DNA from: a virus
Lineage: Duplodnaviria > Heunggongvirae > Uroviricota > Caudoviricetes
IMG/VR virus record: IMGVR_UViG_2711768037_000005
Span: 1 to 64,000 of that record
Length of the DNA: 64,000 nucleotides
Strand: one strand, 5' to 3'
Below the pieces are notes generated by a model. It did no database searches. It was not told the DNA's origin and worked only from the letters and a program-made list of their open reading frames with translations. Of the stretch, positions 54,680 through 57,370 are shown in pieces. Both the position numbers and the translations under genes were made by a program. Position 1 is the first letter of the stretch. Each line of letters opens with the position of its first letter.

Positions 54680-54961
54680 ATGGCATACGGTACAGGGATC
54701 TACAATAATAAGGGAGTTAACGTTACTGGCTTCCTTACTCCTATTTTTTTTCTTGATCGATTTACAACCACGTCAGGCTCTAAGACTTACCCAAATCCAC
54801 CACCTGGCAAATCATTACATGCCGTGTGCTCATTGATGCCTTTAAATAACGATAACCATGTAAATATACCTACACCAACTATCAATATTAACGGCAATAC
54901 AGTCAGTTGGTCAAATTTATACAAGGGACTTGGATCTTATATATATACATATTGGGGATAA
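54680..54961 (+). CDS. hypothetical protein (AT-rich island)
   Basis: ORF track; visibly AT-rich coding sequence. Confidence 0.3.
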   Translation: MAYGTGIYNNKGVNVTGFLTPIFFLDRFTTTSGSKTYPNPPPGKSLHAVCSLMPLNNDNHVNIPTPTININGNTVSWSNLYKGLGSYIYTYWG

Positions 54962-54966
54962 CAATA

Positions 54967-55581
54967 ATGTTCGGGATGTCAATTACTCAGTCAAATGGTA
55001 ATGTGTGGATGAGTCCAGAATTTACACCGCAAAATTTGATTAATAGGGGGACAATGTCCACGTCTAAAGGTTCTGTTTTTAAGACTTCAATACCGTCAAA
55101 CAAATCATGTTTTTTCTTTATAAAAAGCAGTAATAAGGCGAATATGATGTTCGTTCATGAATTTAGAGATGGGTATAATGCTCTCAGACTGAATCAGGTT
55201 GGAGGAAACCCCGGAACGATAACAGTTTATGCTTTTTCTGATATGGTGTTACCACATTCAGGATATGGTATTGCCATGTATAATCGTGCAGGTGAAATGG
55301 TATATCACGGTGAGATGATGCCTCTTGATGCAGAGATTATCACTATTACAAATCCTCAATTTACCATAAATATGGGATACCCGTGTGCGATAATGCCTGC
55401 AATGGTTGGAGTATATAACTACAGACGAACACCTTACGACAGACCTGTATACGTAACAATGACAGGCGCAACGGGAAACCAAATATATAATGGTGAATGG
55501 TATTCAAGTAATGTTACATGGGATGTAAAAAAACTATATACAAATAAAGTCCTGGTTATAAATACATCCAAGTATGATTAG
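54967..55581 (+). CDS. hypothetical protein (AT-rich island)
   Basis: ATG at 54967 with GGGGA RBS (ORF-track 54907 is an upstream TTG extension); Asn/Thr/Tyr-rich, beta-rich composition. Confidence 0.4.
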   Translation: MFGMSITQSNGNVWMSPEFTPQNLINRGTMSTSKGSVFKTSIPSNKSCFFFIKSSNKANMMFVHEFRDGYNALRLNQVGGNPGTITVYAFSDMVLPHSGYGIAMYNRAGEMVYHGEMMPLDAEIITITNPQFTINMGYPCAIMPAMVGVYNYRRTPYDRPVYVTMTGATGNQIYNGEWYSSNVTWDVKKLYTNKVLVINTSKYD

Positions 55582-55684
55582 TCAATGCCTTTATTTTAAG
55601 TATTGCCTGTTAATTTCTATTTAGCACCTTTTTATTTTTGAAATAATTGCATCATTAAACAAATCATTTCTTAATGGTGCAATT

Positions 55685-57370
55685 ATGAATACAGCCCTTT
55701 CCATCATGGACGATGCCAGCTCAAACACTGCTATCGACTATCGACAGGAAATGAACGTCATCCACGAAATTGTGGCCGAGTGCGAGAAAGAGATCTCCTT
55801 CATGTATCAGGTACACGACTTCGTTTATGGCGATGAACGCCACAACATGATTAATCGCCTGCTTCGACTAAACCACCGACCAGATGAAGATCGCTCACGT
55901 TTGAATCGAGTCTGGCTGGATAACGTCGATCTGGAATGGGTGAAACAGAATATTTGGGCCGAGTACTGGAGGAAGGTCACGGACATGACTAACGTTTTGC
56001 TGATCATGCCAGCTTCCCGTCGAGATGAGTGGCGCGAGCAGTTTATAGAGGGCAAACAGGAAGTCACCAAAACTGACAGAACAGGCTACCAGATGAAGGT
56101 TAAAGAGTTCGTTGGTGTACCGGAGTTCAAAGCAGAAACGGTCATACCCACGATGCTTAATTTGCTGAATGACAGGCACAAATATCTCTCTGAGCGCGTG
56201 TATGGCTTGTTTAAGGCGCTGAGTCCTGCGCACAAGACAAATAAGACAAACGGTTTCAGCGAGCGGCTGATAATCGCTGACTGCATTTCTGATTTCTGGC
56301 GGGACAGCGTTAGCGTGAACTATCGCAAAGAGGACTACATCGACGATCTGCGTGTCTTGCTTCATTTCTTCGCGCACAAAGAATTTATTACCATCAACCG
56401 CACTGCTGAGGTGTTATCAGCTGCGTATCGGGCAAACGACTGCCAGACCGGTGACTGGATGAACGTCGATGGAAATCTGATGCGCGTGAAGATGTTCAAG
56501 AACGGCAACGTTCACTTTGAAATACATCCTGACGTGGCTTGGAAGTTGAATGAGGTGCTGGCTTACAGTATGCCTGCTGCAATCCCCGCGCCATGCCGAA
56601 CTGCGCCAAAAACACGGGCACCAAAGCAGTTCGGGTTAATCCAGAAGACGATCTCCGTGCCGGTTCGCACTGCGCTTCGTGACGGGCGATTAAGCAAAGA
56701 CAAAGGCGTATGGTACTTCTCTGATTCAGCTCTCCAGAAGTCGCAGATGGAAGAGCTTGAGCGCACACTGAGCTTCATTGGCGGCGTGCAGGAGAAAAAG
56801 CACTGGCAGTTCCCGTATGAGATCGACCATACGCTAAATACGATTGTGGCTACCGGTTTAATACCGGATACAAAATCACACCAGTTCTACCCTACCCCAC
56901 GCTTGATTGCTGAGTACGTTGCCAGAGCCACTGAATTGAAGCCTGGTGAGAAGCTGCTTGAGCCTCACGCCGGACGTGGGGATCTTCTGGCCTATATTAA
57001 CGCCGATCTGGAAGATGTTACCTGTATAGAAATCGCACCTCTCTTCGCTGATATCCTGCGTGGAAAAGGGTATACGAACACGATTTGCTGCGACTTCATA
57101 AAGTGGTCTGAGGACAACGCAGGTTATCAGTTCGACAAAATCGTTATGAACCCGCCGTACTCGCTTGGTCGTCATAGAGTGCACACACTGGCTGCGCTGG
57201 GGCATCTGAAAGTCGGCGGGCGTCTTGTAGCAGTATTGCCGGGCACTGCGCCAATACTGGACTGGATGACGATGGATAATTACGTTTATGCCAGAGGGAA
57301 GTCGTTTACCAACGAGTTTGAAGACACAGGGATCACAGTCAGCGTATACGTTTTCAAACGCGTTAAATAA
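55685..57370 (+). CDS. DNA amino-methyltransferase domain fused to a roughly 400-aa N-terminal domain of unknown function
   Basis: C-terminal motif I LEPHAGRGDLL and motif IV NPPYS (gamma-type order); no motif recognised in the N-terminal two-thirds. Confidence 0.6.
   Translation: MNTALSIMDDASSNTAIDYRQEMNVIHEIVAECEKEISFMYQVHDFVYGDERHNMINRLLRLNHRPDEDRSRLNRVWLDNVDLEWVKQNIWAEYWRKVTDMTNVLLIMPASRRDEWREQFIEGKQEVTKTDRTGYQMKVKEFVGVPEFKAETVIPTMLNLLNDRHKYLSERVYGLFKALSPAHKTNKTNGFSERLIIADCISDFWRDSVSVNYRKEDYIDDLRVLLHFFAHKEFITINRTAEVLSAAYRANDCQTGDWMNVDGNLMRVKMFKNGNVHFEIHPDVAWKLNEVLAYSMPAAIPAPCRTAPKTRAPKQFGLIQKTISVPVRTALRDGRLSKDKGVWYFSDSALQKSQMEELERTLSFIGGVQEKKHWQFPYEIDHTLNTIVATGLIPDTKSHQFYPTPRLIAEYVARATELKPGEKLLEPHAGRGDLLAYINADLEDVTCIEIAPLFADILRGKGYTNTICCDFIKWSEDNAGYQFDKIVMNPPYSLGRHRVHTLAALGHLKVGGRLVAVLPGTAPILDWMTMDNYVYARGKSFTNEFEDTGITVSVYVFKRVK

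Follow-up and report, generated by a model that had tools for sequence, protein, structure and literature searches.

The locus and its methyltransferase gene

The stretch of DNA analysed here (64,000 nucleotides, positions 1 to 64,000 of the IMG/VR virus record IMGVR_UViG_2711768037_000005, assigned to the Caudoviricetes; hereafter, the window) carries at 55685-57370, on the + strand, the gene of a methyltransferase (MTase) of 561 amino acids (aa), in which a catalytic core is fused to an N-terminal module of 395 residues that includes the Pfam domain DUF4942. The open reading frame (ORF) and its length agree with an earlier note made from the sequence of this DNA. It is a real gene of a known class, the orphan amino-MTases of mobile elements, and its N-terminal module is structurally unmatched. 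An AT-rich cassette of two small ORFs lies directly upstream. Over 54600-57450, Escherichia phage PhiR41_1 shares 98.6% identity with the window and phage Cyrano 93%, and from 55671 onward the identity with Salmonella phage SSU5 and with Klebsiella phage-plasmids is 81-90%; because of these identities, the window is a phage-plasmid of the SSU5/pHCM2 type. Orthologs of the 561-aa protein are SSU5_095, CYRAN_90 of Cyrano, and the protein named 'YdiA' in pHCM2, and others are found in the Klebsiella phage-plasmids.

The protein is a clear member of two catalogued families. Residues 130-295 match Pfam DUF4942 (PF13708) with 73.1 bits against a gathering cut-off of 25, and the full-length protein matches phrog_6263 'DNA methyltransferase' with an E value of 3.5e-298. 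The Pfam model spans only aa 130-295 of the 395-residue module, and both families are catalogue entries without assigned function or structure. The earlier note had recognised nothing in the first 400 residues. This statement does not hold as far as cataloguing is concerned, given the DUF4942 domain and phrog_6263, but it stands for function and fold, as the module has no known one of either kind.

The catalytic part is a minimal class I S-adenosylmethionine (SAM)-dependent amino-MTase core of 166 residues (aa 396-561; 56870-57370, + strand) with a Rossmann-like fold, and a full-length AlphaFold2 model based on 25 homologs has a mean predicted local distance difference test (pLDDT) value of 80.8. 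The core opens with a motif X-like QFYPTP (aa 400-405; 56882-56899), where Q400, F401, Y402, P403, and P405 are invariant in the family alignment A1. It is followed by motif I, read in the translation as LEPHAGRGDLL (aa 425-435; 56957-56989) and predicted to form the SAM-binding loop, and by motif IV, read as NPPYS (aa 489-493; 57149-57163), which is the catalytic motif of amino-MTases. In 59 diverse homologs, motif I shows no variation at E426 and G430 and hardly any at L425, P427, A429, and G432; in motif IV, N489 and P491 are invariant and position 492 is Y or F. Together with E449 (motif II) and D470-F (motif III), these elements define a core with the signatures QFYPTP, EPxAGxG, and NPP[YF]S, and 25 close and 59 distant homologs keep the five motifs unchanged or almost unchanged. 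Thus, the placement of motif I before motif IV, from which the earlier note had recognised an amino-MTase, is kept throughout the family, and the order X, I, II, III, IV is that of the gamma-class adenine-N6 enzymes, in which motif I is N-terminal to NPPY. The catalytic chemistry of the protein can, on these grounds of sequence, be regarded as well supported.

The core lacks the C-terminal target-recognition domain (TRD) found in enzymes of the M.TaqI style, because the chain stops ~35 residues past the core and only two further strands are predicted there; the extra mass of the protein is N-terminal instead. A role in DNA hypermodification, which had been suggested for this enzyme, finds no counterpart in its architecture, as only a plain SAM-dependent NPPY core is present and other modification enzyme domains were not found.

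A conserved N-terminal module without a solved relative

Three segments can be distinguished in the N-terminal module. The first (aa 1-90; 55685-55954, + strand) is a fast-evolving helical segment with predicted helices at residues 20-48 and 52-62, and its identity is 22-30% in homologs where the DUF4942 core keeps 44-62%. The second (aa 91-306; 55955-56602, + strand) is the conserved core of the module, formed by helices and the alpha/beta DUF4942 domain, and contains the invariant residues W95, L179, S180, H183, T185, N186, W258, H277, N289, and L292. The third (aa 307-395; 56603-56869, + strand) comprises a hypervariable linker and a small alpha/beta domain beside the catalytic core, and is a candidate specificity element. 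Identity is lower here than in any other segment, at 18-36% among distant homologs, and between two Klebsiella alleles it is 57%, compared with 78-92% elsewhere in the protein. Segment by segment, aa 91-306 are conserved like the catalytic core, and aa 1-90, 307-395, and 526-561 are the fastest-evolving parts.

The profile and structure predictions that the earlier note had recommended for the N-terminal domain gave, in addition to the DUF4942 match, a confident fold. The model of the module alone, made from 71 sequences, reaches a pLDDT of 87.1 and a predicted template modelling score of 0.79, and consists of helices (aa 20-121), a variable hairpin (aa 124-142), an alpha/beta core (aa 150-306), and a small alpha/beta domain (aa 320-395). 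A search for solved structural relatives of the ~395-residue module found none. When residues 1-395 alone were compared with 1.84 billion representative sequences, they matched 612 clusters at 50% identity (E <= 1e-3), nearly all of them of 510-580 aa, and DUF4942 and the MTase motifs occur together in 59 of 59 sampled family members; therefore, the fusion is the conserved unit.

A natural chimera indicates how this unit is divided. In alignment A1, the protein P0044, compared with P0008 and P0072, is 96-100% identical to the Escherichia coli/Citrobacter type over residues 1-306 and 99-100% identical to the Klebsiella type over residues 307-561. The recombination breakpoint thus lies at about aa 306/307 (~56602/56603 in the window), separating the DUF4942 core from the variable domain and the catalytic core. 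The DUF4942 core may carry a conserved task, such as the engagement of a substrate or a partner, and aa 307-395, which stay joined to the catalytic core in this recombination, appear to be the best candidate for the specificity element.

Distribution, substrate, and role

Orphan MTases are one of the main routes by which mobile elements escape from restriction, and very few of them have been characterised. The family described here is made up of widespread single-chain orphan MTases located on SSU5-type phage-plasmids, IncHI2 plasmids, temperate phages, and integrative and conjugative elements (ICEs). SSU5-type phage-plasmids with the gene occur in Escherichia, Salmonella, Klebsiella, Xenorhabdus, Morganella, and Providencia. 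Among 5426 complete E. coli genomes, 251 (~4.6%) contain the gene, 177 of them at >=95% nucleotide identity, and 247 of its 256 places are on plasmids, almost always of ~105-115 kb. The family is carried by clinically relevant elements, both SSU5/pHCM2-type phage-plasmids and IncHI2 resistance plasmids.

The genomic context of the family was sampled in 80 loci from Gamma-, Beta-, and Alphaproteobacteria, with all neighbouring ORFs clustered. No restriction endonuclease is associated with the MTase gene across these 80 loci and, therefore, the enzyme is an orphan. A conserved partner gene of any kind, whether a restriction enzyme or another system component, was considered and rejected, since the best-shared neighbour is found in 7 of the 80 loci, all in one Halomonas-group lineage. 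The neighbours are instead lineage-specific, and include a lambda-type integrase, YqaJ recombinases, a recombination directionality factor, an S24 repressor, TraK/TraE, DUF932, and, in one lineage, a C5-MTase. In Pseudomonas phage phiPSA1, a 543-aa member adjoins another MTase and an integrase.

When the catalytic domain was compared with a plasmid collection, at least 5000 records were matched; among the matches listed, 4494 lie below 60% identity, and those listed fall into three groups, namely SSU5-type phage-plasmids, ~560-aa DUF4942 proteins of IncHI2 plasmids, and a 187-aa MTase from the leading region of IncF/IncI plasmids. The IncHI2 proteins are full-length homologs (31% identity, E 4e-86), encoded next to dam and near repHI2. 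The 187-aa enzyme (WP_001298559) is homologous in its core (31% identity over 121 residues, aa 400-517, E 4e-14) and has the same motifs, including NPPF/Y. However, this enzyme consists of the core alone, with no DUF4942 module, and its gene directly follows a DUF3560 gene and precedes ssb/psiB in the conjugative leading region, whereas in the phage-plasmid protein the core is fused to the 395-aa module and has different neighbours. Thousands of IncF/IncI plasmids thus have relatives of the catalytic core in their leading regions, although a literature search found no characterisation of the 187-aa enzyme. Plasmid leading regions are enriched in anti-defence genes, and orphan MTases are a prominent anti-defence-associated class in them (Samuel et al., PMC11541004). 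For M.EcoGIX, an unrelated leading-region MTase, protection against restriction has been shown (Fomenkov et al. 2020, PMC7736820).

With regard to these leading regions themselves, those of IncF plasmids (NZ_CP068842.1; locus L003, 5506-7477) contain two unrelated orphan MTases, a 227-aa DPPY enzyme of the M.EcoGIX type and the 187-aa NPPF enzyme. The latter always stands behind a 453-aa DUF3560 gene, in a pair that appears to be uncharacterised. The possibility that DUF3560 is a split version of the N-terminal module was rejected, as BLASTP returned nothing and hhalign gave a probability of 0.07%.

Taken with the orphan state of the gene, these comparisons suggest that the 561-aa protein is probably an orphan DNA adenine-N6 MTase with which mobile elements pre-empt host restriction. 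The enzyme would transfer a methyl group to the N6 of adenine in the DNA of the element and, incidentally, in that of the host, so that sites would be masked from host restriction and the enzyme would serve in anti-restriction or establishment. By its conserved DUF4942 core, it could hold or position the nucleic-acid substrate, or a partner, and the hypervariable aa 307-395, recombining together with the catalytic core, might tune specificity. The anti-restriction role, one of those proposed in the earlier note, fits the evidence in that the enzyme is an orphan, occurs only on mobile elements, and has a core homologous to that of a leading-region MTase. Knowledge of the target would aid the interpretation of Enterobacterales methylomes, help to explain the host range of these elements, and give a function to a Pfam family of hitherto unassigned role.

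Several observations weigh against this proposal. A second MTase is already present on the same element, at 50215-50808 (+ strand), where the product scores 113 bits (cut-off 97, E 9.6e-33) with TIGR01712, the model of phage N6-adenine MTases, and its counterpart in Cyrano is annotated 'Adenine methyltransferase'. The separate Dam-like enzyme that the earlier note had placed there is thus confirmed, and so is its distinctness from the 561-aa protein; both are phage-borne orphan adenine-N6 MTases of the same element, but the 561-aa protein is of another family and architecture and shows no match to TIGR01712. Moreover, the phage-plasmid has no conjugative leading region, and the analogy with leading-region enzymes is, therefore, one of domain homology and not of context. 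The N-terminal module has a pI (isoelectric point) of 5.2-7.2 per segment, near neutral and not basic, unlike a typical DNA-binding domain. In the literature, no characterisation was found for DUF4942, the SSU5/pHCM2 MTase, or ydiA, and a search for methylome or biochemical data on any member of the DUF4942-MTase family found none.

The gene is also dispensable. Among the 251 E. coli records that match it, 187 do so with >=80% coverage, so that it is truncated in about a quarter of them. In plasmid pEC17CM6_2, the MTase gene is cut after ~450 nt, and the segment between the cut point and the S24-peptidase gene has given way to a PolIII-theta gene and to the three genes of a complete Type I restriction-modification (R-M) system (hsdM-hsdS-hsdR). 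Such a replacement makes the locus a plastic swap site for defence and anti-defence genes, which speaks in favour of the anti-restriction proposal. It is seen in part of the E. coli SSU5-type phage-plasmids, where the MTase is reduced to a 136-aa ORF (55685-c.56135 in window positions) and the R-M system takes its place (loci L091 and L093; NZ_CP190020.1, 82844-89351).

A bolder version of the proposal assigns the DUF4942 module a targeting function of a new kind, in which it would read no DNA sequence and would instead couple a minimal, TRD-less adenine MTase to a structural feature, such as DNA that is single-stranded or under replication, or to a protein of host replication or repair. This version is possible but doubtful. 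If true, it would provide a broad, replication-coupled methylation by which mobile elements (phages, plasmids, ICEs) are shielded from many restriction systems at once, and the family would do in the gamma class what the unrelated M.EcoGIX enzymes do in theirs, while aa 307-395 would be a tuning element open to swapping. M.EcoGIX and M.BceJIII are single-strand-specific, promiscuous (SAY) plasmid MTases of the beta class, with a DPPY motif (PMC7736820). They resemble the present enzyme as orphan adenine MTases on mobile elements, and a plausible functional analogy would be a pre-emptive, low-specificity methylation by which incoming DNA is guarded from restriction. However, they are of ~227 aa and lack the DUF4942 module, and membership of the 561-aa protein in their family was rejected, as a beta-class DPPY enzyme stands against a gamma-order NPPY enzyme and BLASTP to the 227-aa methylase gave an E value of 0.9. 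Among the gamma-class enzymes, M.TaqI, M.BseCI, CamA, and the Type I HsdM subunits likewise differ, since none of them has a 395-residue N-terminal module, and the 561-aa protein has no C-terminal TRD.

Returning to an adenine-N6 MTase acting on DNA, its methylation might serve the element itself, by regulating replication, packaging, or the lysis-lysogeny switch, and not be directed at host restriction. Dam methylation has an established role in the packaging of phage P1, at the level of pac cleavage. The conservation of the gene in SSU5-type phage-plasmids across the six host genera named above, its position within a one-strand block of early or accessory genes, and the repeated co-occurrence with a second MTase would all agree with such a function. 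Nevertheless, this explanation seems unlikely, as the same family is found on IncHI2 plasmids, ICEs, and integrating prophages, which replicate and package by other machinery and where the gene has no conserved neighbour, and as many otherwise intact E. coli phage-plasmids have only a truncated gene or another insert in its place.

The substrate might also be RNA (rRNA or tRNA, methylated at adenine N6) or a host protein, with host translation being reprogrammed as a result. The absence of a TRD and the structural matches to METTL5, KsgA, and Erm are in line with this alternative, which is nonetheless distinctly improbable. The strongest sequence matches of the catalytic domain are to DNA-MTase profiles (PADLOC mad2, 6e-15; Type II MTases, down to 2.5e-10), whereas rRNA-MTase models reach E values of 0.002-0.06 only, and DNA is the more plausible substrate because the DNA-MTase profiles score many orders of magnitude above those of RNA MTases. 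Structural alignment of the catalytic domain gives 20-26% identity with M.TaqI, M.BseCI, and CamA and 15% with METTL5, at similar Z scores. In addition, the domain matches PHROG 'DNA methyltransferase' families, several of them of very large multidomain proteins, and homologous domains are known from plasmid leading regions as well as from phage proteins with the annotation of DNA methylases.

Finally, a Type IIG-like single-chain R-M or defence enzyme, with the N-terminal module as a nuclease acting on unmethylated DNA, is very unlikely. In its favour, some phage homologs are annotated 'RE endonuclease', D262, H277, E279, and N289 are conserved in an alpha-beta-beta-beta-alpha stretch of the DUF4942 core (aa 240-295), the locus alternatively holds a Type I R-M system, and the catalytic domain matches mad2, the MTase of the MADS defence system, but there is no nuclease signal (no recognisable PD-(D/E)xK or HNH endonuclease domain) and no TRD, and the protein is of 561 aa without a C-terminal domain where Type IIG/IIL enzymes have ~900-1300 aa and a C-terminal TRD. 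As for MADS, only aa 395-523 align to the mad2 model (positions 266-401 of 492), and the two genes flanking the MTase gene have no match in PADLOC.

The AT-rich cassette and other features of the locus

Two further features concern the MTase gene itself. A 16-nt inverted repeat (55643-55686, + strand) is predicted to fold into an RNA hairpin over the Shine-Dalgarno sequence (GGUG) of the gene and the AU of its AUG. The predicted fold has -16.5 kcal/mol and a z score of -4.0, and none of 200 shuffled sequences was equally stable. The hairpin is found in the window and in Cyrano, with one G.U to G-C change, and is absent in SSU5, Klebsiella, Xenorhabdus, and Morganella. A conserved regulatory RNA that occludes the Shine-Dalgarno sequence was, therefore, rejected, as the structure is restricted to the E. 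coli lineage and the consensus fold has only -2 kcal/mol. It may act in a lineage-specific translational control, or as an operator.

The MTase gene also matched nine chromosomal places, of which one was inspected, a spacer in the type I-E CRISPR (clustered regularly interspaced short palindromic repeats) array of E. coli AST85 (iap-CRISPR-cas2e). This leader-proximal 32-nt spacer (locus L092, 1201-1232) is 100% identical to 56360-56391, and the protospacer, on the - strand, is accompanied by an ATG protospacer-adjacent motif (PAM) at 56392-56394, where the + strand reads CAT; both together occupy 56360-56394. An identical spacer next to the leader and a functional ATG PAM show that the adaptive immunity of E. 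coli has recently targeted the MTase gene.

The earlier note had described an AT-rich island that contains two ORFs and ends in the MTase. The AT-rich character is real, since the GC content of 54626-55684 is 35.7%, the minimum among the 1-kb stretches of the window (mean 45.6%, standard deviation 2.8), but the island stops at the start codon of the MTase gene, which has 49.8% GC and, therefore, lies outside it. The insert, a moron cassette of ~1.0 kb (54605-55604, no strand), stands in place of ~80 bp in SSU5; nucleotide homology to SSU5 can be followed up to 54604, close to where the SSU5_094 homolog ends, and again from 55605. SSU5 and its Klebsiella relatives have the MTase and lack both small ORFs. 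Because of this break in homology, the AT-rich stretch is a separate, independently acquired two-gene insert that is unrelated to the MTase, and the annotation would have to be corrected so that cassette and MTase are treated as independent units and not as one island.

The first ORF of the cassette (54680-54961, + strand) encodes 93 aa and belongs to phrog_557, labelled 'outer membrane protein'. The second (54967-55581, + strand) encodes 204 aa, belongs to phrog_425 ('membrane associated protein', moron category), and is translationally coupled to the first. Its likely start is not the TTG at 54907 but the ATG at 54967, which lies six bases past the stop of the first ORF and has a Shine-Dalgarno sequence GGGGA 7 nt upstream; in Cyrano it is annotated from the position equivalent to 54976, giving 201 aa. 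Both are rich in Asn, Thr, and Tyr, as had been noticed before, with a summed share of 32.3% and 24.5%, respectively, compared with 13.1% in the other long ORFs of the window. No hydrophobic or transmembrane segment was found in either protein (the maximum Kyte-Doolittle value of the first over 19 residues is 0.79), no signal-like N-terminus was seen, and searches of Pfam, NCBIfam, PADLOC, and the PDB gave no match. The inherited 'outer membrane' and 'membrane associated' labels are, therefore, unsupported and were rejected.

The adjacent phrog_557 and phrog_425 pair is also found in Stx-converting podophages, at 60-62% aa identity and between the tail-fibre genes and lom, and in T1-like Drexlerviridae at ~41-44% aa identity; in both groups of phages, homologs of the second ORF are always paired with the first. 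The pair occupies 54680-55581 in the window, 4708-5609 in locus L086, and 3711-4606 in locus L087. In E. coli, the cassette was found in 150 of the 5426 complete genomes, almost always on plasmids of ~105-115 kb.

The genes surrounding the MTase gene are all on the + strand and form the block of early or accessory genes mentioned above, which includes the Dam-like MTase, an RNase H, TciA/TciB-like and Ead/Ea22-like genes, and an HD hydrolase. Just upstream of the cassette (53333-53916) are an ORF like P1 TciA (TerB family, tellurite/colicin resistance, 142 aa) and a TciB-like/DUF3927 ORF (52 aa), both labelled after their relatives. Downstream of the MTase gene, a 213-aa ORF (58636-59277) is the counterpart of SSU5_099, 'metal-dependent phosphohydrolase'. 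Its homolog in Klebsiella pJN2-26 is annotated as an HD/PDEase domain protein, ppGpp hydrolase/synthetase-like, and the product could have a host-signalling or anti-defence function.

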